Shown: positions 5,803 to 64,000, counted from the stretch's first letter. The stretch: DNA of 64,000 bases from Escherichia coli (GCF_003019035.1 NZ_CP027448.1), one strand, 5' to 3'. Translations and numbers: made by a program. The notes: generated by a model from the sequence alone, not told the origin.

Positions 5803-8800
5803 TCAGTCTCCGCCCAGGGTTTTCTCTTTCTGCAGGTCACGAACCATATCCCGCTCCATCTGCTGCAGACGCTCCTGCAGCAGATTTTCCCGGGCAACCT
5901 CCCGGACCGCTTCCCGCTCCCGTTGTGATTCACGCAGCACACTATCCGGCAGCGCGGCTTCCCGTTCAGTTATGGCAGCCCGGTCACGCTCCTGCCCGGC
6001 AATTTCCCTGACAGCCAGCTCTGTTTTGCCATCCGGCAGGTCAGGTTTGTTCTCTGCCATTTTACGGACAATTTCATCTGCGCGGCGTTCCGTTTCACGG
6101 CGGATGGCCTCTTCAGCCTGCCTCTGTGCCAGCACCTCTGCCGTGACCGGTTCGCCATTTCCGGCTCCCGGCTGGACGCTGTTGTCCGGGATATCCCCCC
6201 ACACGCGGCCACCGGTTATGGCACCGGGATTCCACGGACGGCCTTCACCGGCGATTCTTACCACCACACCACTGTCAGGATTATCACGGGCAATCCGGAC
6301 ACCATCCTGCATATTATCAGCCAGCAGGCTTTCTCCGTTACGGCTGCCCTGCAGGGCCACAAACTGTGCATCTTCACTGCCCTTCACCCGGCCTTCACCA
6401 CTGAATCCCCGCAGCCCGTTTCCGTCATCCGTGGTCAGCGGGTTCAGCCAGATACCGGCAGACTTGCCGTTACGGTCAAAAGCCGGCAGTGCCACATACG
6501 GCTGTGGGTATTTGCGCCCCGGAGCAATAAACCGTGCAGGACTGTCTCCCCCGGCCAGCCCCGCCTGACGAAGAACGGCTCGGCCTGCCGCCACGTCCCG
6601 CAGCTCCCGCGCCGTACTGAACAGCCGCTCTGCATTCATGACCTCCCGGTCCGATTTCGGCTCAAACACATCGTGGGCAGTTCCTTTCTGTTCGGCATTG
6701 TTAATGGCATCCGTCCAGCCCTGACGGTTATCGGTGTACACCTGCACATGCTGCTTCATACGCGACAGGGCCACGTAGGCTGACTCAAAGCCGGCCATCT
6801 GTTTCCGGCTGCCTTCCGTGCCTTCAAGCGCAATGGCAAAGGTTTCACTTGCCCCCTGCGCACCGTGGGCGGTGATGGCATAGGCCAGGTCAATATGTTG
6901 CTCTGCCCGCTCCTGACCGGGGCGAATCACCCGGGTCTGCTGTCCGCCCGACAGCGTGACACTGTCACCGGAAACCGCTGTCACCGTCCAGACGCTGTTG
7001 GCCACATAGCCGCGCTCCCGGTCACTCTTCGTGAAGCGCATCCGGTCACCGGTCCCCACCCGGATGGTGTCCGGGGTGTACAGTGTGACACCTTCAGCCA
7101 CCGCCTCCCGGGGCGAAATCAGCCGCGTGTTACCTTCCGCATCCTGCAGGGTTATCAGCCCGTCACCCTTACTGATACCGGCAATCCGGTGATACACATT
7201 ATCCACCAGGACAAGTGCGTCCCGATGTGTCTCCCAGGTGGAGAGACGACGCAACTCCCCGTCGCGTATATTCGCTGTGTTCAGGACAGGCACCATGACC
7301 TGCTCTTTCCCCAGCTCACCGGCCTTTTCCCGTGCATCATGAATCATGCTGTTCAGTACGCGCCGGTCCTCATTCAGGTGCGTGACAATAAGCGTCTGCT
7401 CCCGTGCTTCCGGCGTCCTGCCGGTATAGTCGCGGACAATGGCTTCATACAGTGTCATGGGGACATCCGGAAAAGCCTCGCCGTTCTGCATCGCCTTCTG
7501 CTGCGCTTCTGCCAGTTTCGCTTCCTGGCTGTGACTGAACTCCGTCACAGAGTGCTCCGGTACCCATGCGCCCTCCTGACGTGGCACCTGAGACGGTTTC
7601 ACACTCTCAAGCCCGGACAATGCCCTTTCCACATCCCGGTTAATCAGGCTGTATACCGCCTCCCGCAGTTCCGGCGTCTGACGCACAATCTCCTTCATGA
7701 TGGCCACATCGGCAGCGCTGCGCGTCTGCTGGAGACGGAAAGGCTGACCGGGCGCGATGGCCTGCAGCTGGTCCGTGTCACCGCTGGCCACTGCACGACC
7801 ACCACCGGCCGCAATCAGGGCATATGCCCGTGCCATGTCGGTATTGCCCACCATTGAGCTCTCATCGAGCAGGAACAGCGTGTTGCTGAAATCCGGCGTT
7901 TCTCCGCTGCGCAGCTGCAGCTGCGTGCCATGCAGAAAGGACGCCAGTGTCTGTGCATCCACGCCGGCGCTGCGCATCTCCCCGACCGCACGGTGCGTGG
8001 GCCCCAGCCCCACGACACGGGGACGCTCACTCTCCGGCAGCATGTTCACGGCTGACATCACCGCCCGGAACTGTGTGGTCTTACCCACACCGGCATAGCC
8101 CTGCACCACCGTGAAACGGTCGGACGTTTCCAGTATCATGCGGGTGGCGGCACGCTGTCCTGATGTCAGACTCTCCATGACTCCGCCAGGGACTCTCTCC
8201 ATCAGCGGCGTGACCGCCTCCTTACCTTCGAGAATATGGCGAAGAATGCTCTTTTCTGCCTCATACGACGCACGGGAAACCAGCAGGCCTGTGCCATAGC
8301 CTTTTGCCACATCCACATACAGTAAATCACCGCGTTTTATCTGCGCATTGATTTCCCCTCCCAGTTCAGTAAAACTGGTTCCTTCTGCAGCAAACGACTT
8401 CGCCTCTGTCAGCAGGTCCACCATGCTGAAGGCCAGGTTTTTACTTTCCAGCACAGGAAGGGCCAGATGAATGGCCTGCTGTGCCGGCGTGTGAAGCCCG
8501 GCTTTCTGCAGACTGATAGCGGTTTCCAGCAATGTCTCACCGGCACGCGCCTTTATCTGCTCAGAAACCACCGTAAAGGAGGGATGGCGGGCAAGGTTTT
8601 CCGCCGTACGGGTTTCATCCAGCGAGGAATACAGCCGGACATCACGACCGCTGCGGGCCAGACCGTTCAGGGTGGCGTTGTCCATTGCCATCTGTGTGAC
8701 GGAGGCAAAAACCTTCGCACTGTCGCTGACGGAATGCCCGGGCGTTTCCACCCAGCCGTTCTCCAGCTTCAGTGCCGTGAACGGTGAATCGCTCACAGGC

Positions 8801-54695: not shown

Positions 54696-55129
54696 GTACC
54701 GTTTATCACCGTCCGGCTGACCCTTCAGGCGATGACAGTTACGTGCGACCGTTGTTTGCCGATCGTTGCCAGGCCGGTTTTCCTTCGCCTGCCACTGATT
54801 ATGCTGAGCAGGAACTGGATCTGAACAGCTATTGCATCAGCAGACCTGCAGCCACCTTCTTTCTGCGCGCCAGCGGTGAATCGATGAACCAGGCTGACGT
54901 GCAGAATGGTGATCTGCTGGTAGTGGACAGGGCCGAAAAACCACAACACGGGGACATCGTTATCGCTGAGATCGACGGTGAGTTCACCGTCAAACGACTG
55001 CTGTTGCGCCCACGCCCGGCACTGGAGCCGGTTTCAGACAGCCCGGAGTTCCGCACACTGTATCCGGAAAACATCTGTATTTTTGGTGTTGTCACTCACG
55101 TGATACACAGGACGCGGGAGTTACGCTGA
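54692..55129 (+). CDS. impA: ImpA (UmuD-like S24 peptidase-domain protein)
   Basis: 145-aa ORF with LexA/UmuD-type Ser-Lys dyad context (ASGESM ... K) and overlap with impB start. Confidence 0.85.
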   Translation: MSTVYHRPADPSGDDSYVRPLFADRCQAGFPSPATDYAEQELDLNSYCISRPAATFFLRASGESMNQADVQNGDLLVVDRAEKPQHGDIVIAEIDGEFTVKRLLLRPRPALEPVSDSPEFRTLYPENICIFGVVTHVIHRTRELR

Positions 55130-55251
55130 TGTTTACACTGGCTGATATCAACAGTTTCTACGCCTCATGTGAAAAAGTTTTCCGCCCGGACCTTCGCAAC
55201 GAACCGGTCATCGTACTCAGCAATAACGATGGCTGTGTGATCGCACGCAGC
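55126..55251 (+). pseudogene. impB: impB (UmuC-like Y-family polymerase), 5' fragment cut by insertion
   Basis: MFTLADINSFYASCEKVFRPDLRNEPVIVLSNNDGCVIARS matches the UmuC N-terminus, then leaves homology and hits a stop at about 55284. Confidence 0.8.
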
Positions 55252-55301
55252 CCAGATTATGTGGAATTGCAAGTAACGTTGTAGTGCTGATGAGGAAAAT
55301 T

Positions 55302-57530
55302 TTATCTGACTACAATATTGATATCGTTTTCCGCAACAATCAGCATCACGGCAGGTAAACCCTCCACACGCATTTTCTGGTGTAATTTTTTGATTAAATT
55401 ATCATCTTCATTACTGGCTTTTGCGGAAAAGCCTTGTGGATGGGAGTGCCATTCGCCAACATAATCGACAACACGAGCGGTCAACTGGTGAACCCGTTCT
55501 AATGCTTCTTGTTGTCCCGCTTCTCCCCGGACAAAGGAGGCTGGAGAGGATTTACTGTCGATAGGTTCAGGGAGCACGTCAACCAGAATAATCGTTTTGT
55601 TCTTAAAATCTGTTATGCCAACAATTGCACCTCCTGTTTCATTAGGCAGTGCCTGTAAGCGGGTGTGCTGCAATTTTTGCGCTAAGCCCTGGTCATATTT
55701 AACAACCCATTCGCCAGAAATTATAGATACCACGGAATAGAGTTCAATTTCATGTGCATCCATCGCGCCTGATATTTCATCAGATACCCAGATACACAAT
55801 CGAGCATTTCCTTTGAGTGCAGTCTGGCGAAGTTGGCGTGAGAGGATACCGGCATGAACATGAATACATTCACTGGACATACGTACAGAAATATCCCGAC
55901 ATCCACCACCGACCCAACGATCGCCATAATTGTGCTGTAGGTGAGTACTTCCCCACTCACTGCTCAAAATTGCCCGATAGTATTGCCCCTCAATTGCATC
56001 AATTCGGCATTGTCTGTCTACATCCTCCATTAACATCACGCTAGACTGACCCGATGGAGTCAGAAACAGGCTAACTATTCTGGGTATATCATCTTTTAAC
56101 ACTAGAGTCCTCGGCACCTCAAAGGTGGTACTGACATCCACAACTAAGTCTGCCTCATTCATTGCCTTAGCAATATCATCATCGTCATCAAGAATACTTT
56201 TATGGATCGCCTGAGGGAGGGGCTCATGCGGATAAATAGATTTGGCAATATGCTGAATAATATGGGGTTTTGAGACTCCAATATGACAATCAAACCCAAT
56301 ATGGCGAGACAAATTATGTGGAAGAAGCCGATCTGGATCAATAAAAGTCCATGTCCCCCACCCCATTCGAATCCAAATATCAGCCAATGTACTACCAAGA
56401 GCGCCAACTCCAGCTAAAATACCTCGAAAAGCTGCACTCTCTGAATCAACAGCAGATATGTCTCTCGCATGTGTGGCCTTCATAGCCGAACGTATTTCAA
56501 CTGGTAAAAGCGGTAATTGTCGCCACTTGGTACTAATTGATCCGCCAAGAAGCCGTACGCGATGCTGTACTCCTCGCTCATTTTTTGGCGCCAGCATATC
56601 TAGTGCAGTGGCAAGTTCACCGAGTGAACTTTGCACAACATAGCCCATCACATCCGTACGTTCTGTTTCTCCGTTTCTTAGACGGGGGATCCAAAGCAGG
56701 ATAAGTAAGCCTTCTCCTTTACCAGACGTTGGGCGGATACCATCACTTGGTATTGCTTCATAAACAGCGTCAGTTAGTGGTTTTAGGAGCTCACTTCCCC
56801 ATTCATTAAGTTGTTCTTCTAATTTTCCCAGATTATCCGGGTATGTAGCCACCGTAGAAACATCGACAGGAGGAACAGCAATAGTTAATAAGCGAAATGG
56901 CTTAACGCTTGAGGTATCTTGTTCTGGTACAGCCCTTAAAATAATCGGTCGCCCCTCACTGACCATCTGGAGACTGAGCTTATTGTCAGTCGCGTGATGA
57001 TAATCGGGGTAATTGGCTGGCAAAATGAGCTGATAGGGACTCAAATAAAAAAGTTGCTCAAGTGGCTGATCTTCTCGATGTAGATGCAGTTCGGCCGATT
57101 CTCTAAGCCACCAAAAAATGCGCTCAAGGAATCTCTCGGGGGTCCAACTGCGCTCAACTGCGCTCCAGGAGGCCTCATATAGGCAAAGAATTCGTGGTGA
57201 GCCAGGTTCTCCAGCATGCTGGTGAGAAAGAACAGGGAAATCTTTCCGCAATGCATGAACCAAGATAGGTATGCTTGATTTGGGATTGACCTCAATAGCC
57301 AATCGTTCTTTACGACGAATACGGGCTTGATTACCAGAAGCCACAGTCCCATCAGCAGCATCAATGATTAGATATTCCGAGCGGTTATCATTTATTTCAG
57401 AAAATCGTAATTCTCTGACTGTGACGTAAGGATGATTCTCGCATGCTTTAAGCAGCGAAATCGTTTGTGGATAAAGGCTATCGCGCCCCGATGAATCGAG
57501 GCGCTCACCCAATTCGAAATATTCGATCAT
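55302..57530 (-). CDS. Fused E2-like / E1-like (ThiF/MoeB) / JAB-MPN peptidase protein
   Basis: 742-aa ORF: N-terminal H...C pattern (HQHAGEPGSPRILCLY, UBC-like); central Rossmann GILAGVGALGSTLADIWIRMGWGTWTFIDPDRLLPHNLSRH (E1 signature); C-terminal JAMM-like EWHSHPQGFSAKASNEDD. Confidence 0.75.
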   Translation of the reverse strand: MIEYFELGERLDSSGRDSLYPQTISLLKACENHPYVTVRELRFSEINDNRSEYLIIDAADGTVASGNQARIRRKERLAIEVNPKSSIPILVHALRKDFPVLSHQHAGEPGSPRILCLYEASWSAVERSWTPERFLERIFWWLRESAELHLHREDQPLEQLFYLSPYQLILPANYPDYHHATDNKLSLQMVSEGRPIILRAVPEQDTSSVKPFRLLTIAVPPVDVSTVATYPDNLGKLEEQLNEWGSELLKPLTDAVYEAIPSDGIRPTSGKGEGLLILLWIPRLRNGETERTDVMGYVVQSSLGELATALDMLAPKNERGVQHRVRLLGGSISTKWRQLPLLPVEIRSAMKATHARDISAVDSESAAFRGILAGVGALGSTLADIWIRMGWGTWTFIDPDRLLPHNLSRHIGFDCHIGVSKPHIIQHIAKSIYPHEPLPQAIHKSILDDDDDIAKAMNEADLVVDVSTTFEVPRTLVLKDDIPRIVSLFLTPSGQSSVMLMEDVDRQCRIDAIEGQYYRAILSSEWGSTHLQHNYGDRWVGGGCRDISVRMSSECIHVHAGILSRQLRQTALKGNARLCIWVSDEISGAMDAHEIELYSVVSIISGEWVVKYDQGLAQKLQHTRLQALPNETGGAIVGITDFKNKTIILVDVLPEPIDSKSSPASFVRGEAGQQEALERVHQLTARVVDYVGEWHSHPQGFSAKASNEDDNLIKKLHQKMRVEGLPAVMLIVAENDINIVVR

Positions 57531-58714
57531 TGGTTTGATACACCTGCCCTAGGAGCGGCGGCCGTAGCAGCACTTACCGCAGCTGAAACAGCACCAACAA
57601 TAGCGGGTATTAACTTCCCGTCTCCAGCCACTTCAAATTCAAGGAACGCTGTATCTTTAAGATCCCCCGTACAGCTAAACCAACCATCAACACTGTCCAG
57701 AATATCCTCATACTCACGCTTAGCCCGGATGCACGGTGGATCATAATCATCATCAAGTATCTGATTGCTACTCGATACAATTGTTGCCCCGGAACGAGCC
57801 TGACCTAAAGCATTACGGGCCGCATCACAAACTTCAGCATTCTCCCCCCATTGTGACCAGCTATCATAGGAAAGTGAATGCCATGAACAATGATGCGGTG
57901 TGAGGAGAAGATCATATTCTAGTGCCTCAGCATTGCTTTTGTAACGATCCCATAATCGCTCCCAGATGAGAACTTCTGCGTCTCCACCTAATAGAAAGTG
58001 CATAGGATTACGGGAATATGCAGAGGGCAGTATTTTCATGTTCATGATGATACTGGATTCGTTTTTAGAAAGAGCTTCTTCCAAATATTCATCATCTTCA
58101 TGTGGTGCGGGCGCCAGAAGCTGTGCGGAGAACACTTCTGAAATTTGCCCGTCAATTCTGGTGAATGTATCTCCAGCTTTGATAAGAATGGCACTCAGAT
58201 CATCTGTTTTGCCATTAATATCTTCACCCATGATAAGGATTCGATTACCGCTAGATGCATAACCATGTTCCCGCCAGTATTTTACTCGGCGCCGTGCTTC
58301 TGTATTAAATGCCTGAGCATCTTCGCAAAGTGTGTGACTTTTGGAACGACGCCGAAAAATCAATGGTGATGACCACAATTCTCGAATAATGATACGCTTT
58401 TCTGAACGTTTCACATCGTCATCTGGATAATCTTCAGGACGGCCCAGCCAGAAATGTTTACGCAGGCCACCGCAATGATCCTGATCGGGATGACTGAGCA
58501 TAAAAACATCAATAAAGGGACGATCTTTTTCATCATACTTCAATCTGCTACGTAATGCCGAGGCAACATCAGGTGTGTCATCATTGGGGTTATCAGCAGC
58601 AGAGCGAATATGTACATCAATCAGAATGGATGTGCCCCGGGTGTCGGCCAAACGTACCAGTGTCATATCACCGTTGCCGACTTGGAAAAAAGTAATTTTG
58701 GCTGCCATCGACAT
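57527..58714 (-). CDS. Metallo-beta-lactamase-fold protein
   Basis: 395-aa ORF with HPDQDHCGG (HxHxDH metal site); stop overlaps the downstream start (ATGA). Confidence 0.8.
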   Translation of the reverse strand: MSMAAKITFFQVGNGDMTLVRLADTRGTSILIDVHIRSAADNPNDDTPDVASALRSRLKYDEKDRPFIDVFMLSHPDQDHCGGLRKHFWLGRPEDYPDDDVKRSEKRIIIRELWSSPLIFRRRSKSHTLCEDAQAFNTEARRRVKYWREHGYASSGNRILIMGEDINGKTDDLSAILIKAGDTFTRIDGQISEVFSAQLLAPAPHEDDEYLEEALSKNESSIIMNMKILPSAYSRNPMHFLLGGDAEVLIWERLWDRYKSNAEALEYDLLLTPHHCSWHSLSYDSWSQWGENAEVCDAARNALGQARSGATIVSSSNQILDDDYDPPCIRAKREYEDILDSVDGWFSCTGDLKDTAFLEFEVAGDGKLIPAIVGAVSAAVSAATAAAPRAGVSNQ

Positions 58715-58767
58715 CTCCTTTAGGGATACGAAAGATTGAGGTTAAGAGCATCTATTGCTAAGATACA

Positions 58768-58796
58768 TCTAGTAATTATACTAGTCTAGTAATTAG
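58768..58796. promoter_or_regulatory. Direct repeats in the divergent promoter region; candidate operator
   Basis: tctagtaatta at 58768..58778 and 58785..58795, in the 128-bp gap between divergent operons. Confidence 0.35.
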
Positions 58797-58842
58797 ACGT
58801 ATATTTTGGACTTAAATTGTAAGTACAGGAAATTATTGATAA

Positions 58843-59697
58843 ATGAGTGATAAAATGGTGAGAACTGGTCATTGGAGCCAAGAAAGACGGCTTGAATTCA
58901 TCGATTTTCGCCTACTGTGGGAAGGTCGGCTTAACCGTGCAGATCTCACGACATTTTTCAGAATTTCAGTTCCGCAAGCCTCATTAGATTTGGCAAAATA
59001 TCAAGAAGTTGCGCCAAACAACATGGTGTATGATCGAACTCAGAAGGCTTACATTACGACTCCTGATTTCAAACCTGTTTTTACAAGCTTTGACAGTAAT
59101 CATTACCTGAATGAACTACTTGGGCGAGAAAATGAAATAGTGGATCCTGATGATAGTTTCATTGGGTGGGTACCCCCGGTAGCCAGCCTTCCTCTCCCTG
59201 CCAGGAAAGTACAACCTGAAATATTGATTGATTTAATTCGAGCCATGCAAAGAAAACAGGCTTTGGTTGTTGATTATCGCTCAATGACTAATGAACCAGC
59301 AATTCGTACGCTATACCCAACAGCATTTGCACATGATGGGCATCGGTGGCATGTTCGTGCTTATTGTTTTAAGTCTACAATGTTTAAAGATTTTGTTCTT
59401 GGTAGGTTTTTTAAAATCGTTGAATTTGTTTCCCCACCGACATCAATTCCACAAGATGTGGACTGGAATACATTTATTGACGTGGTAATAGGTCCAAACC
59501 CTAACTACGATATGAATAAACGGCTATCTATTGAACATGATTATCAAATGGTAAAAGGAGAAGCAAAAATCCACATACGTAAAGCGCAATTATATTATCT
59601 TAATCGTCGATTAAATTTGGATGTAAATAGCGATGGTTCAATAGATGACAAACAGCAGATCATCATGCTCAGAATAGACGAGTCTAAAACCTATTAA
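58843..59697 (+). CDS. wHTH-WYL regulator (BrxR/CapW-like)
   Basis: 284-aa ORF with N-terminal HTH-like region and WYL-like segment LVVDYRSMTNEPAIRTLYPTAFAHDGHRWHVRAYCFKSTMFKDFVLGRF. Confidence 0.65.
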   Translation: MSDKMVRTGHWSQERRLEFIDFRLLWEGRLNRADLTTFFRISVPQASLDLAKYQEVAPNNMVYDRTQKAYITTPDFKPVFTSFDSNHYLNELLGRENEIVDPDDSFIGWVPPVASLPLPARKVQPEILIDLIRAMQRKQALVVDYRSMTNEPAIRTLYPTAFAHDGHRWHVRAYCFKSTMFKDFVLGRFFKIVEFVSPPTSIPQDVDWNTFIDVVIGPNPNYDMNKRLSIEHDYQMVKGEAKIHIRKAQLYYLNRRLNLDVNSDGSIDDKQQIIMLRIDESKTY

Positions 59698-59709
59698 GGG
59701 AATATTTAT

Positions 59710-60228
59710 ATGAATGCGAATGATGTTAACAAACGGAATAAAGAATGGATGATTGTAATCATTATTATCTATCTTTTTATTTTGTTATGTATAGCAACAT
59801 ACGCTATTGGGGCTATGTCTCTAGGTTGGTTACCAACACCTTACGCACCATTAAGGGTGCCACTGATGTGCGGAGCAATTGCCTATATAGGTGGTTGTTT
59901 ATATTGTTTTCGTGCAATTTACCTCAATAAATGTATTAGAAAACAATGGGATCCAGATTGGCATGTATGGTATTTCATTCGCCCACTGACCAGTACAATC
60001 GCAGGTGCTATCAGTTATTTATTCCTTAAGGCGGGGTTGTTAGTTTTGGAGTCTAGTTCCAATGTAGGAGCTAGTGAAATGGGTTTCTTTGCGCTGGCAT
60101 TTATTGCTGGTTTTAACGTCGATAAATTTGTCGCAAAAATCGAGGAAGTTGCAAAGGCTGTCTGGGGTATTGAAAAAACTCGAAGCTCGACTAATAATGA
60201 TGCGAAAAATTCGGAAAAAAAAGAATAG
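59710..60228 (+). CDS. Small multi-pass membrane protein (about 4 TM helices)
   Basis: 172-aa hydrophobic ORF 13 bp downstream of the regulator gene. Confidence 0.6.
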   Translation: MNANDVNKRNKEWMIVIIIIYLFILLCIATYAIGAMSLGWLPTPYAPLRVPLMCGAIAYIGGCLYCFRAIYLNKCIRKQWDPDWHVWYFIRPLTSTIAGAISYLFLKAGLLVLESSSNVGASEMGFFALAFIAGFNVDKFVAKIEEVAKAVWGIEKTRSSTNNDAKNSEKKE

Positions 60229-60274
60229 TCTGGATGTATTTAAATTAAAATGAAATTAGTGCTGAGCTATTTTA

Positions 60275-61594
60275 TTACTTTCTCTTATTTCCTGGGGTCG
60301 CGCCCCCAGTGAGCTTATTCAAAAGTTTGTCCACTGCCTGTATATCGTTTTCTACAGCGGCTTGTTCGTCATCAGTCAAAGGGATTTCCTGCATCAGCTT
60401 GAGTAGATTCTGGCGACCTTCCAAGTATTGTGCTTCAGATGAAGATTTTGGCATATAAAATGAGCATTTTGCACATGCCATCCGATGGGGGCATTGCTCA
60501 AAAAAGTCATAAGTACAGAAACCGTGTCCAAGATCATAATAACGCCATGGCTTCCCGGATGCTACCAGCCCTTCAGCTATCGCGTCTTGATCAATGAGAA
60601 CTGAAACCATGCGGCGATTACATTCAAAGTAACCAGCTTTATCCAGTGATCCTGCCAACCTCGTCGGTGTAATTTCGACATAATGTCGGGTAGATTCAGG
60701 TGAAGAATGCCCCAACCATTTCTGTAGCTCAAAAATATCAAGTGGTTCCCTGGCGTTGTAAAGCTGACTGGCTATAGTGGCTCTTGCCCGATGGCTGGTG
60801 ATTTTACCTCTGGCATCCTGCTCAGGTATACCAGCCTTTCTGCATAGCAAAGGGATTAGCGAATTATTAATATAACTACTGTGTACCCGTTTCCCCCTGT
60901 GCATGAACAAAAAACGGACGCTTTCACCTGTTTTAGAATCTTCCTGGAGGGGGTGGGGGTTACGAACAAGTTCCCATTGTTCGATATATTCCCCGATAAT
61001 AGGGTCAACTGGCTTTGTGAATGCCGCGTAAGTCTTGCTAACGGGTACATCTATCAGACAGATACGGGATACATTATTTTCTTCTGGCTGTTGCCAGCGG
61101 ATACACCCACACTGCATACGTAGAATTTCATCACGTCTGAGGCCTCCAAATAACCAGAGAACGCTGAGTGCTCTGACCATCTCCAGTGGATAAAAATAAG
61201 GATATGCAACACAGTTTGGTAAATCCGACTCCTGCAGGTTCTGTCCGGCGTGAAGTAATTTACACCACATATCATCGGCCACAATACGAGGCTCTGGTCC
61301 AACCAGGGAAGTCAAGCTACGCGGTGCCCTGAAAACTCTTTCTGGGCTGAATCGTACAGGTATCCATCCCCATTCCTGCAAGTCATGAAAGAAAGTTCTA
61401 ATATGACCCAACATCCTGGCTCTCGCTGCAGGCATCATCATTTTGCCACGACGGTCACGATACATGCCCCCAGGGGTTGCCCATTCACCAACTTTCATTC
61501 TACAAGCGGCGGTCACCCAGACGATCGCGGTGTCCCGTGTCCAATCAGATGGTGACAGACAGGTTGGATAGCACTCAGCTAACCAGCTGACCAC
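60275..61594 (-). CDS. Tyrosine recombinase (large, with C-terminal Cys/His cluster)
   Basis: 439-aa ORF with GGLRRDE, HRARAT, LGHSSPESTRHY catalytic-type motifs and CPHRMACAKC cluster. Confidence 0.8.
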   Translation of the reverse strand: MVSWLAECYPTCLSPSDWTRDTAIVWVTAACRMKVGEWATPGGMYRDRRGKMMMPAARARMLGHIRTFFHDLQEWGWIPVRFSPERVFRAPRSLTSLVGPEPRIVADDMWCKLLHAGQNLQESDLPNCVAYPYFYPLEMVRALSVLWLFGGLRRDEILRMQCGCIRWQQPEENNVSRICLIDVPVSKTYAAFTKPVDPIIGEYIEQWELVRNPHPLQEDSKTGESVRFLFMHRGKRVHSSYINNSLIPLLCRKAGIPEQDARGKITSHRARATIASQLYNAREPLDIFELQKWLGHSSPESTRHYVEITPTRLAGSLDKAGYFECNRRMVSVLIDQDAIAEGLVASGKPWRYYDLGHGFCTYDFFEQCPHRMACAKCSFYMPKSSSEAQYLEGRQNLLKLMQEIPLTDDEQAAVENDIQAVDKLLNKLTGGATPGNKRK

Positions 61595-62525
61595 ACTTTA
61601 GCAAAACGTACCAACCGGACAAAATAGATGAAGGGCGAAGTACTGAGGTAGCACGCCACCGTTTGCACCATACCAGCCATTTAGTTGGTACATCAGCTGT
61701 TGCATTATATTCGCGGGGAGGACGGCGACGTTGTGTTATTCGGTAATCAACCCCTTCCTCAATAGTCCCTGATGCAGCCAGTATACGCGATAGAGTAGCT
61801 GAGGCTTCCCGGAGGGAATCCGGGCACGTTGCAGCAATCTGTTGCAACGTGGTCACGGTGATATGGTCTAGTTGAGCATCCCTTTGCAGAAGCATTGCCA
61901 TACACATGGCATTTCTGATGCCGTTGTTCCGACTATCACGAGGCACATATCCCAGAACCTGCATCATATTGTCAAGCTGGCTGACGGCAAAATCGGTGCT
62001 CTGTCGGCCAAAAACCTTAAGACAGAGCCGATATTGATAGAATATGCCACAGTGTTCCAGCCGCTCAAACCCACATAGCAACCATGCTAACGCTATAACA
62101 TATTGCCGACAGTTGCCGCTGGCTCCAAACCGTCGACGAAATTCCCCTTCGCTGTTGCAAATAACTTCTAACCACTCTTCTTGTGTCCAGGCCCAGTATG
62201 TTTTCCGGATGCGCTGCATCTCTAGGACTATATCGTGAATAGATGAATTGTAGGGGGCCTTGGCCGCATGCATTTTTGTTAGCGTGTCGCGTAGTGGTAA
62301 AAGAAGGCGGGAAAGCCGTTTTTGTATATCAGGTGACCAGTTTTTACCTCCTTGCTGGAAGTGGTCGACCAATGTATCCAGTGCCGCAAGCTCGCTTTCA
62401 GAGATCTCCGATCGGGTATCCCAAAGTAGGGCAGGAAGACTGAGTGATGTTGTCGGACAAGGCGCTGTATGTTCAGATTGCATCATGGAGAAGGATCCTG
62501 CTGTTGTAGTACAGTAAGGCGGCAA
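61575..62525 (-). CDS. Recombinase-associated ORF (overlaps both flanking recombinase genes)
   Basis: 316-aa ORF overlapping the upstream gene by 43 nt and the downstream gene by 20 nt; no catalytic motifs seen; could be an accessory protein or the frameshifted N-terminal part of the 439-aa recombinase. Confidence 0.5.
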   Translation of the reverse strand: MPPYCTTTAGSFSMMQSEHTAPCPTTSLSLPALLWDTRSEISESELAALDTLVDHFQQGGKNWSPDIQKRLSRLLLPLRDTLTKMHAAKAPYNSSIHDIVLEMQRIRKTYWAWTQEEWLEVICNSEGEFRRRFGASGNCRQYVIALAWLLCGFERLEHCGIFYQYRLCLKVFGRQSTDFAVSQLDNMMQVLGYVPRDSRNNGIRNAMCMAMLLQRDAQLDHITVTTLQQIAATCPDSLREASATLSRILAASGTIEEGVDYRITQRRRPPREYNATADVPTKWLVWCKRWRATSVLRPSSILSGWYVLLKCGQLVS

Positions 62526-63535
62526 GTATGCAAGGATGCGACCGTGTAATTGAAACGACTACTCAGATCACGTGCGCTGAGATGAATATAGAGCAGAGTT
62601 GACTGGATACGACGGTGGCCAGCGAATGCAGCAATTTCGTGGATGTCCCACCCCACGCGTGCCAGTTCTGTCAGACAAAGATGTCGGAATGTGTGGGTGC
62701 TGATGAGTGGAAGATCAGCCTTAATAGCTAAACCGCGAACTACTTTTGACCAAGTCCAGTTGCTAATAGGTTCTGCCCGATTACGCGGAGAGCGTGAGAG
62801 AAACAACGGACCGCGAGATGAGCTTAGCATACGACGTTCAGTGAGCCATGCTGTGTAGAGTTCCCCCGTCACAGGAGAATAGGGCACAACCCGACCAAAG
62901 CGGTTTTTGGTATGCTCAGCGCGCACAGTGAGCAAGCGTTGAGAAGGGTCAATATCTCCGGTAGCTACTGTGCAAAGTTCTTCTCTGCGTAATCCGCAGT
63001 CGTAGGCCAGTGCCAGCATAAAACGAGTACGGATATCAGCTTGTCCGGCTACCTCAAGAAAGCGCAACCACTCCGCATCATCCGGGATCCACGGTAGCCG
63101 CCGCTGCAACGGCACTATACCAGCTTTTCCTTTCCCTCCGTTTTTCCAGACACCTCGTCTGACAGGATTTCTCTCCCGTATCCCCTCCTCACAAAGCCAA
63201 TAGTTGTACAGTCGTACCACCGTCAGCCGGTGGCGGATAGTGGCAGCTGCCAGCTGGCGACCGGTATGCAGGCTGCGGACATAGAGTGCGACCGTATCAC
63301 GTCCAGCGACAGCAGCCGTCAGGGCAACAGAGTGACAGAAAGCGAGCCAGTCATTGACGCCACGGGCATAGGCATCAATGGTGTTTGGAGCACACAGCAG
63401 GTCCTCCTGCAGGCACACCCACCGGCAAGCTGAAGGATCGGCCGACAGAAAAGGCAGCGCATCCAGCAGTTTCTTGTGCACAGCATCCCCCTTTTCGATA
63501 ACAGAATGTGTTGTATGAAATATAGTCAATTCCAA
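62483..63535 (-). CDS. Tyrosine recombinase (XerC/D-like)
   Basis: 350-aa ORF with GLRREE, HTFRH, GHRRIQSTLLYIHL catalytic-type motifs. Confidence 0.85.
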   Translation of the reverse strand: MELTIFHTTHSVIEKGDAVHKKLLDALPFLSADPSACRWVCLQEDLLCAPNTIDAYARGVNDWLAFCHSVALTAAVAGRDTVALYVRSLHTGRQLAAATIRHRLTVVRLYNYWLCEEGIRERNPVRRGVWKNGGKGKAGIVPLQRRLPWIPDDAEWLRFLEVAGQADIRTRFMLALAYDCGLRREELCTVATGDIDPSQRLLTVRAEHTKNRFGRVVPYSPVTGELYTAWLTERRMLSSSRGPLFLSRSPRNRAEPISNWTWSKVVRGLAIKADLPLISTHTFRHLCLTELARVGWDIHEIAAFAGHRRIQSTLLYIHLSARDLSSRFNYTVASLHTCRLTVLQQQDPSP

Positions 63536-63543
63536 ATAACATA

Positions 63544-64000
63544 GAAGCGAAGCGGCTGGGCATAAAAATGGGAGTACCGTGGTTTCAGCTGAAGTCGGTG
63601 AAATTTCCGGAGCCGGTCATCGCCTTCTCCAGTAATTACGCGCTATACGCATCGATGTCGAACAGGGTTATGTCTCATCTCGAGGAGCTGGCGCCGGGCG
63701 TGGAGCAGTACAGTATTGATGAGATGTTTCTCGACGTGCGGGGTATTGACAGCTGCATCGATTTCGAGGATTTCGGCCGGCAGCTGCGTGAACACGTCAG
63801 GAACGGGACTGGCCTGACTATCGGTGTCGGAATGGGGCTAACCAAAACGCTGGCAAAGTCAGCACAGTGGGCTTCCAAAGAGTGGCCACAGTTTGGTGGC
63901 GTGCTGGCGTTAACGCCAGGCAATATCCGCCGTACGGAAAAACTGCTGTCACTGCAGCCGGTGGAGGAAATCTGGGGGGTAGGCAGCAGGATATCAAAGA
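63544..64000 (+). pseudogene. impB: impB (UmuC-like), 3' portion after the insertion (continues beyond window end)
   Basis: In-frame EAKRLGIKMGVPWFQLKSVKFPEPVIAFSSNYALYASMSNRVMSHLEELAPGVEQYSIDEMFLDVRGID... matches the UmuC region that follows the N-terminal fragment. Confidence 0.8.

Follow-up and report, generated by a model that had tools for sequence, protein, structure and literature searches.

A two-gene operon on an F-type plasmid of Escherichia coli is almost certainly a 6A-MBL anti-phage defence system: identity, predicted mechanism and mobile context

Identity of the operon

The operon at positions 55302-58714 of a 64,000-nucleotide stretch of Escherichia coli plasmid DNA (NZ_CP027448.1, assembly GCF_003019035.1; the whole stretch is referred to as the window, with positions counted from its first letter) is almost certainly a member of the 6A-MBL group of anti-phage defence systems. 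It comprises a gene for a metallo-beta-lactamase (MBL)-fold protein, followed by a gene for a protein in which E2, E1 and JAB modules are fused in one chain (Table 1). Both products matched curated equivalog models of NCBIfam release 20. The E2-E1-JAB protein scored 661 bits against NF058523.1 ('anti-phage 6A-MBL system cap2_3 protein'; cut-off 320, E 2e-198) and the MBL-fold protein 425.6 bits against NF058524.1 ('anti-phage 6A-MBL system MBL-fold protein'; cut-off 220, E 1.4e-127), and E-values of this order to curated families exclude chance as an explanation. In line with membership in 6A-MBL, we found the E2-E1-JAB triple module, an adjoining co-oriented MBL gene and intact catalytic residues.

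An initial annotation of this region, made from the sequence alone, had described two coupled genes with an ATGA overlap. Both open reading frames (ORFs) were recovered at the same coordinates in the ORF listing of the window, and the overlap was read directly in the sequence (...AAC CAA TGA / ATG ATC GAA). The phage-defence role suggested there is supported by the 6A-MBL equivalogs and by papers that cite 6A-MBL as anti-phage. The implied novelty of the operon did not hold, as this operon type is already known: it was described in 2006, has been named, is reported to be anti-phage and is covered by curated models. Iyer, Burroughs and Aravind 2006 (PMC1779556) list the two-gene MBL plus E2-E1-JAB architecture in their Table 1 as row 6a, from which the name 6A-MBL derives, while row 6b of the same table later became the type II form of CBASS (anti-phage signalling by cyclic oligonucleotides). 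A passage of PMC13276650 cites 6A-MBL as a validated anti-phage component from Pseudomonas aeruginosa, after van den Berg et al. 2024 (Cell Host Microbe 32:1427), the paper that citing papers credit for the anti-phage activity of 6A-MBL, and a statement in a preprint lists it among 'known jumbo phage defense systems' (bioRxiv 10.1101/2025.09.30.679545).

The window operon has the same two-gene core as 6A-MBL of P. aeruginosa, with the MBL gene first, and its proteins score at about twice the equivalog cut-offs; a divergent brxR gene and a membrane-protein gene are also common to the P. aeruginosa loci and the window. The difference lies in the setting, since the window operon is carried on an E. 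coli F-type plasmid, within a recombinase cassette inserted in umuC.

With type II CBASS (type 6b), in which Cap2 and Cap3 act on nucleotidyltransferases resembling cGAS and DncV (CD-NTases), the operon shares several traits. Cap2 and Cap3 are the best structural and profile matches of the E2-E1-JAB protein, one E2 cysteine and one E1 loop cysteine are present in both, and the partner enzyme of either system carries a disordered tail that finishes with a conserved glycine. In contrast with type II CBASS, the window operon has neither a CD-NTase nor a cyclic-nucleotide effector, Cap2 and Cap3 are fused in one chain, the partner is an MBL-fold hydrolase, and many 6A-MBL members carry a short propeptide after the glycine, which would make processing by the JAB domain obligatory. 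Bil (type 6c) and Bub (type 6e) resemble the operon in their E1/E2/JAB-type chemistry, in a peptidase that exposes or removes a C-terminal glycine and in their defence-island or mobile-element contexts. They differ in having a dedicated beta-grasp ubiquitin-like protein (Ubl) and separate E1 and E2 proteins, with Ser for Cys in Bub, whereas the window system lacks a Ubl and carries the Gly terminus on the MBL enzyme itself. Type II CBASS was rejected as an assignment, there being no CD-NTase or nucleotide-activated effector among the ORFs of the 50-64 kb region, and so were Bil and Bub, as E2, E1 and JAB are fused and neither a ubiquitin-like gene among these ORFs nor a small Ubl ORF in the cassette was found. 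The view of the initial annotation that the operon is neither a standard type II CBASS nor a Bil/Bub-type operon is consistent with these results.

A further assignment concerns the RefSeq label of the larger gene, 'ThiF family adenylyltransferase', which together with weak matches to ThiF and MoeB models could point to a housekeeping operon for ThiF/MoeB/MoeZ-type sulfur transfer or cofactor biosynthesis, one of the cases that the initial annotation had named as overturning it. The ThiF and MoeB matches reached 20-35 bits against cut-offs of 152-377, however, and the operon lacks a ThiS/MoaD partner and a rhodanese domain, whereas E2 and JAB domains are present and the genes lie in a mobile cassette of sporadic distribution. 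A sulfur-carrier adenylyltransferase was rejected accordingly, and we regard the housekeeping reading, refuted by domain composition and family scores, as having a practically negligible probability.

Public annotation lags behind. Even in 2025-2026 RefSeq records, the E2-E1-JAB gene is labelled 'ThiF family adenylyltransferase', and the MBL gene appears as 'ComEC/Rec2 family competence protein', 'metallohydrolase' or 'hypothetical protein' (e.g. locus L001, 12303-15709), so that public annotations still mislabel 6A-MBL genes; the curated 6A-MBL names have yet to propagate into RefSeq records. When the four cassette proteins (the operon products, the regulator and the membrane protein) were scanned with PADLOC and NCBIfam, only E1-E2, JAB, MBL and WYL models responded. 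The NCBIfam model for Cap3 remained far below its cut-off for the window protein. PADLOC-DB 2023 holds no 6A-MBL model and returned generic CBASS E1-E2 and JAB matches along with weak LmuA and PDC-M48B matches; a 2023-era defence finder would therefore miss or mislabel the system. A defence context is also indicated by the neighbours in other genomes, among which are AbiTii, an SMC_N/AAA_23 protein with MComp1 and CTD4 domain proteins, an MksE-domain protein, Tn7-like transposition genes and integrases.

Table 1. Features of the 6A-MBL locus and its surroundings (window coordinates, except in the last row, which gives positions within other loci; aa, amino acids; pLDDT, predicted local distance difference test)
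Feature	Coordinates	Strand	Basis and remarks
umuC fragments	55129-55256 and from 63549 on (63549-64000)		two fragments annotated by RefSeq
Inserted cassette (6A-MBL, brxR, membrane protein, recombinase module), ~8.3 kb	55257..63548	.	splits umuC; right boundary approximate
E2-E1-JAB gene ('cap2_3', Cap2-Cap3 fusion)	55302..57530	-	742 aa; NCBIfam, Pfam, Foldseek
JAB/JAMM metallopeptidase domain (Cap3-like), aa 617-734	55329..55682	-	Pfam Prok-JAB, E 2e-9; PADLOC JAB model, E 6.7e-23
E1 adenylation domain, limits approximate	55800..56500	-	Pfam ThiF aa 369-472, E 7e-11; Cap2 profile and structure matches
C544 codon, E1 domain	55899-55901	-	motif G-G-G-C-R-D; flexible loop
E2 domain (Prok-E2_A / UBC-like), aa 67-174	57009..57332	-	Pfam PF14457, E 7.5e-22; H103, catalytic-candidate C116
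MBL-fold gene	57527..58714	-	395 aa counted from first ATG; NCBIfam, AlphaFold model
Disordered Ala/Ser-rich MBL tail, aa 374-395	57530..57595	-	pLDDT <50
Gly391 codon, predicted conjugation terminus	57542-57544	-	PRAG conservation; VSNQ = predicted propeptide
Conserved core of the brxR-MBL intergenic region (58715-58842)	58758..58800	-	5-locus alignment; ~45 bp
WYL regulator, probably BrxR family	58843..59697	+	divergent; Pfam WYL, E 8.6e-8
Conserved membrane protein	59710..60228	+	172 aa; downstream of brxR; candidate accessory partner of MBL enzyme
Recombination module, three overlapping genes	60275..63535	-	NCBIfam, Pfam, RefSeq
Tyrosine recombinases	60275..61594 and 62483..63535	-	NCBIfam XerC/XerD-like matches
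Middle ORF of recombination module	61575..62525	-	316 aa; no NCBIfam or Pfam match
Membrane-protein homologs in other loci	L002 6407-6991; L006 4424-4996; L010 6001-6459; L012 738-1214; L013 5001-5486; L019/L037 ~8263-8793; L035 7103-7558; L086 8173-8679		

The E2-E1-JAB protein

Conservation in the E2-E1-JAB protein was assessed in an alignment of 111 full-length homologs that were 40-99% identical. H103 and C116 of the E2 domain were conserved in 100% of them, as were, in the adenylation core, G374, G376, G379, D398, D400, N406, R409, K421 and D465, which lie within or around the motifs G374xG376xxG379 and N406-L-S-R409-H410. C544, within the motif G-G-G-C-R-D, and the JAMM site residues E631, H695, H697, S706 and D709 (H695-S-H697...S706..D709) were likewise invariant, and C116 and C544 were the only fully conserved cysteines of the protein. 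The three ubiquitin-pathway-like modules that the initial annotation had recognized in the 742-aa chain were recovered by Pfam as Prok-E2_A, ThiF and Prok-JAB, and the motifs named there coincide with the invariant residues. As judged from its sequence, the enzymatic machinery is intact, with the E2 Cys, the E1 Cys, the adenylation site and the JAMM site all present.

A comparison of the family profile with solved structures gave Cap2 as the best match (7tsq, 7tsx and 7to3; E ~1e-9). In line with this, the first Foldseek match of the AlphaFold model (pLDDT 81.8) was the full-length Enterobacter cloacae Cap2 7to3_A (E 1.8e-23, 639 aligned columns), with a TMt of 0.80 for the Cap2 E1 domain, whereas Cap3 (9ild_A) matched with a TMt of 0.73 at 23% identity. 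The cysteines of Cap2 are C109 in the E2 domain and C548 in the E1 crossover loop (bioRxiv 10.1101/2022.03.31.486616). C544 of the window protein is located on a loop modelled with low confidence (residues 542-548, pLDDT <50) and would fit the crossover-loop Cys of Cap2 (C548) and of ATG7, a correspondence that is positional. The catalytic assignment of C116 and C544 thus relies on invariance and position, not on residue-by-residue mapping to Cap2.

Degraded or diverged copies were also encountered in Enterobacteriaceae (homologs P0146, P0008, P0066, P0087 and P0096; plasmid matches H40 and H42). These include a 580-aa form that lacks the E2 domain, is 82% identical and represents 894 member sequences, as well as Klebsiella records with MBL fragments of 220-300 aa and an unannotated 1.5-kb stretch left over from the ligase gene.

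The MBL-fold protein

The upstream gene had initially been read as encoding an MBL-fold protein with an HxHxDH motif. The fold stood up to analysis; the motif did not, as it is really HxDxDH (S-H75-P-D77-Q-D79-H80-C-G-G), which is of the ComEC type (THPDADHIGG in ComEC). The metal ligands D16, H75, D77, D79, H80, D245, H274 and H275 were invariant in 53 homologs. Pfam found nothing in this protein and searching the PDB by sequence alone yielded no more than marginal matches to ComEC; the fold was therefore confirmed through structure prediction. The AlphaFold (AF2) model had a pLDDT of 89 and a predicted template modelling score (pTM) of 0.89, and the best PDB fold for it was the ComEC beta-lactamase-like domain 9ic4 (E 1.3e-12, TMt 0.72), followed, in this order, by the phosphodiesterase Pce, RNase J, Integrator IntS11 and archaeal beta-CASP proteins. 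Domain and structure searches of the kind that the initial annotation had suggested (Pfam, AlphaFold, Foldseek) thus supported the E1, JAB and MBL folds alike.

Among solved folds, the C-terminal MBL (nuclease) domain of ComEC/Rec2 comes closest, and the motifs GxGD and (S/T)HPDxDHxGG are common to it and the window protein. In contrast with ComEC, the window protein is soluble and has no competence channel or OB-fold domain, contains an insertion of about 100 residues and the PRAG tail described below, and scores far below the ComEC family cut-off, with no ComEC family among its NCBIfam matches. A ComEC/Rec2 competence protein was rejected as an assignment on these grounds, the similarity being confined to the MBL domain, and the name 'ComEC/Rec2 family competence protein' given by RefSeq is misleading.

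Members of the same ComEC-like MBL clade occur in other defence systems, namely LmuA of Lamassu, Avs1a of Avs1, the DRT RTasMBL and the PADLOC candidate PDC-M48B. They share the defence context with the window protein, but have neither an E2-E1-JAB partner nor a PRAG tail, and their sequence similarity to it is marginal (E 1e-4 to 1e-6). Because the structural relatives cut nucleic acids or phosphodiesters, because the clade recurs in other defence systems and because most operons hold no other candidate effector, the reading we favour from the models is that the MBL-fold protein acts as a nuclease or phosphodiesterase effector, the activity or location of which would be switched by conjugation.

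RefSeq places the start of the MBL gene at 58708, two codons 3' of the ATG at 58714, which gives a protein of 393 aa (MAAK...) rather than 395 aa (MSMAAK...). The start is thus uncertain by two residues; homologs are mostly 391-396 aa long.

The C-terminal tail of the MBL-fold protein

The MBL-fold protein ends as the initial annotation had described, ...AAAP388-R-A-G391 followed by V-S-N-Q395, in a segment that is modelled as disordered. A PRAG-type terminal motif was found in 114 of 115 full-length close homologs; 24 of these 114 end exactly at the glycine, and the others carry 2-7 unconserved extra residues, apart from one outlier with 32. We then considered a diverse sample of 80 loci with E2-E1-JAB homologs of 28-65% identity from many phyla, including Proteobacteria, Bacteroidota, Cyanobacteria, Chloroflexota, Acidobacteriota, Verrucomicrobiota and a candidate-phylum bacterium. 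Directly upstream of the E2-E1-JAB gene, on the same strand, an MBL homolog was present in 73 of the 80 loci; in at least three of the remaining seven, the contig stops at or just before the E2-E1-JAB match. The motif [P/A/S/H/L][R/K][A/M/H/V]G was present at the MBL C-terminus in 71 of these 73 operons (PRAG in 58), and the two proteins without it come from ORFs that end about 500 nucleotides early. Of the 71 motif-bearing proteins, 45 stop exactly at the glycine, while 26 carry 1-8 variable extra residues. ComEC-like MBL proteins without an E2-E1-JAB neighbour showed no PRAG-type tail. A comparable association has been described for CD-NTases, whose C-terminal Gly signature was reported only in operons with Cap2 and Cap3 (PMC10097602).

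An extension that is optional and unconserved points to processing after the glycine, for which the fused JAB domain, going by its sequence, is an obvious candidate. As the C-terminal Gly is nearly universal, the propeptide variable and the tail disordered, we consider it likely that the C-terminus of the MBL-fold protein is the conjugated end, that is, the substrate of E1 and E2. The proposal of the initial annotation that the MBL protein is itself the substrate, through a glycine exposed by JAB, gains comparative support from the same figures.

Alternatively, the two proteins might cooperate without activation of the MBL C-terminus: the ligase would act on a different substrate, such as a protein of the phage or of the host or a modifier from another locus, or conjugation would sequester or inactivate an MBL nuclease until its release by JAB. 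There is a precedent in Bil, which, according to a passage of PMC13276650, conjugates a separate Ubl to phage proteins; moreover, the fusion of JAB to the ligase could favour a release-type switch, and conjugation in the 6A-MBL family is itself predicted. However, an E1 site that receives this terminus, as it does that of the CD-NTase in Cap2, would account for the MBL glycine, the disordered tail and the variable propeptide, for which an explanation is otherwise hard to find, and the cassette contains no Ubl gene. The variant with inhibitory conjugation is compatible with these data. We hold this alternative as a whole to be unlikely and retain the MBL terminus as the predicted conjugated end.

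Proposed mechanism

Taken as a whole, it appears probable that the 6A-MBL system travels as cargo of a recombinase cassette in an F-type plasmid and works along the following lines. The BrxR-type WYL regulator would control the divergent promoter, at which conserved TAGAC repeats bracket the -10 hexamer. The MBL and E2-E1-JAB enzymes would probably be produced together, because their genes overlap by ATGA. Comparison among homologs suggests that JAB would then remove the VSNQ propeptide, exposing Gly391 at the end of the tail. By homology to Cap2, the E1 domain would adenylate Gly391, the MBL protein would be transferred as a thioester to Cys544 and subsequently to Cys116 of the E2 domain, and it would finally be ligated to a nucleophile on a target. 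By homology to Cap3, JAB may also reverse such conjugates and in this way set the threshold of the system. From its fold, the MBL effector would be a ComEC-like two-metal phosphodiesterase, most likely a nuclease; conjugation would switch its activity or location, and phage replication would be stopped. The specific reading that the MBL protein is a nuclease effector activated by conjugation, which draws on structural models, is in our estimate evenly balanced.

Several points weigh against this scheme. The 6A-MBL phenotype and the genes tested are known here through what citing papers state about van den Berg et al. 2024. The validated system comes from P. aeruginosa, where the E2-E1-JAB homologs share 57-65% and the MBL homologs 66-76% identity with the window proteins, and conjugation, trimming and nuclease activity in the window operon are predictions. 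Further, the mapping of C544 to C548 of Cap2 is positional only, as the sequence alignment to Cap2 spans residues 367-480 only. Regulation could run any way, with conjugation activating, inhibiting or localising the MBL enzyme, and one published sentence, in PMC11601596, calls the MBL a 'signaling enzyme' and not an effector. Handles on the mechanism are provided by the conserved ...PRAG terminus with its optional propeptide, the two invariant cysteines, the promoter/operator core and the co-travelling membrane protein.

The probable BrxR-family regulator and the intergenic region

The gene divergent from the operon encodes a WYL-domain regulator. Pfam detected only WYL in the window protein, whereas orthologs that are 44-67% identical carry WHD_BrxR, WYL and BrxR_CTD, and RefSeq names the gene as BrxR family in near-identical E. 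coli records. Its position upstream of a defence operon also fits a BrxR-type regulator. In each of the five loci examined first, among them two P. aeruginosa alleles, Shewanella and a distant metagenomic contig, a brxR gene lay upstream of the MBL gene in divergent orientation, and a brxR homolog was present in 12 of the 80 diverse loci.

Alignment of the five intergenic regions revealed a conserved core, ACTAGAC-N3-GTATAAT-N-CTAGAyGTATCTTAG, in which a TATAAT -10-like hexamer (58775-58780, minus strand) is flanked by TAGAC repeats. TAGAC and GTAT were invariant in the five regions, although the corresponding BrxR proteins are mutually only 43-67% identical. Judging from its conservation across loci, the core probably serves as the promoter of the operon, with a BrxR operator overlapping it. 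A consensus promoter scan of the region did not exceed shuffled expectation and did not flag the core.

The co-travelling membrane protein

Downstream of brxR lies a gene for a conserved membrane protein, to which no Pfam, NCBIfam or PADLOC family could be matched and for which 563 homologs were retrieved. Its sequence is 80-89% identical between the window plasmid and the P. aeruginosa 6A-MBL loci, that is, above the values for the MBL protein (66-76%), the ligase (57-65%) and BrxR (67%). It was found in seven of the 80 6A-MBL loci, one of them in a Bacteroidota genome, either next to brxR or directly downstream of E2-E1-JAB. In three betaproteobacteria, of the genera Cupriavidus, Paraburkholderia and Allopusillimonas, homologs 62-65% identical to it are directly followed by a PDC-M48B-type MBL gene, with neither a ligase nor brxR. 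The association with MBL-fold genes in three arrangements suggests, at the level of gene content, a functional partnership between the membrane protein and this MBL clade.

Such a partnership could be accommodated in a CBASS-like layout, in which an MBL enzyme primed by conjugation would make or process a small-molecule signal and a separate protein, here the membrane protein, would kill; the pair of membrane protein and MBL would then be a minimal 'type I' form and 6A-MBL a 'type II' form with Cap2/Cap3 added. The three arrangements and the better conservation of the membrane protein (80-89% vs 57-76% for the enzymes) agree with this layout, as does a sentence in PMC11601596 that groups MBL with CBASS and Pycsar as pathways conjugating 'their respective signaling enzymes'. 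However, the membrane protein occurs in only those seven loci, most operons being without a candidate effector besides the MBL protein, and no signal-binding domain was recognized in it by NCBIfam or Pfam. Further, the fold of the MBL protein is a hydrolytic one, with nucleases and phosphodiesterases as its nearest relatives, and related MBLs are of the effector type in other defence systems. We consider the CBASS-like layout improbable.

It is similarly doubtful, though conceivable, that the membrane protein is an unnamed partner of the MBL enzyme in a different sense, with the Cap2-like ligase attaching the nuclease through Gly391 either to the membrane or to this protein, where it would destroy entering DNA. 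The nearest eukaryotic relatives of this ligase, ATG7 and ATG3, join a C-terminal Gly to lipid. If it were true, 6A-MBL would be a membrane-anchored nuclease acting at the point of entry and not a CBASS-like priming system. The reading of the MBL protein as an effector switched by conjugation remains the one we favour.

Mobile cassette, plasmid context and distribution

The window runs collinear with a conjugative plasmid of the F type (IncFII), with repA, finO and traX to traM followed by the leading region. Positions 1-54700 make up the plasmid backbone, which comprises repA, finO, the entire tra operon and oriT-proximal leading-region genes, namely ssb, psiB, psiA, hok/mok, an anti-restriction gene, two DNA methyltransferase genes and a ParB-like gene, after which come dinI and umuD. 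The defence cassette sits just past this leading region.

At least 80% of the 5.3-kb region 55000-60300, which spans the operon, brxR and the membrane-protein gene, was contained in 170 plasmid records and in 28 of 5,426 complete E. coli genomes, nearly always on plasmids; overall, 1783 of the 1821 matching places in E. coli are on plasmids. In E. coli, Salmonella and Klebsiella, the 6A-MBL system thus circulates on conjugative F-type plasmids, within a small mobile cassette. This distribution would also suit a role in warfare between plasmids, in which a plasmid-borne ComEC-like nuclease destroys incoming competitor DNA (plasmids or transforming DNA) and does not mainly serve phage defence. 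The position beside a leading region with anti-restriction and methylase genes fits that role, and ComEC, the nearest structural relative, degrades DNA at the point of uptake. On the other hand, 6A-MBL is cited as phage-protective, most homologs lie on chromosomes, within defence islands or transposons, and many defence systems ride plasmids without targeting plasmids. Plasmid warfare as the main function is, in our view, very improbable, and phage defence is kept as the proposed role.

The operon had been placed by the initial annotation on a mobile element next to a WYL regulator, in agreement with the WYL-domain gene described above and with the cassette of about 8.3 kb delimited here. The umuC reading frame runs to ...VIARSP at 55256 and resumes with EAKRLGIKMG from ~63549, so that this impB-type gene is broken after codon ~43. 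Approximately 2,500 plasmids are ~99% identical to the window over the left flank (dinI-umuD-umuC') up to 55253-55256 and then diverge, while the right-hand part of umuC matches other plasmids at 82-87% only. The split umuC looks chimeric. An uninterrupted close umuC, representing the empty site, was not found, and the continuation in the ~2,500 left-flank plasmids was not detectably similar to the right flank of the window. The target-site duplication and the right end of the cassette are accordingly given as approximate.

Three overlapping genes form the recombination module at the right side of the cassette. Recombinase-in-trio (RIT) elements consist of three adjacent tyrosine recombinase genes within inverted repeats. 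Two of the three ORFs of the module are tyrosine recombinases, no domain was recognized in the middle one, and a terminal inverted repeat matching at 13 of 15 nucleotides was seen by eye, outside the top-ranking repeats; it is too short to be convincing.

In the E. coli plasmid NZ_CP126929.1, the recombination module and the right flank are present at 99% identity without the 6A-MBL genes, which suggests that the module can carry different cargo. A full copy of the cassette, 82.7% identical, was observed beside umuD in a Klebsiella pneumoniae plasmid.

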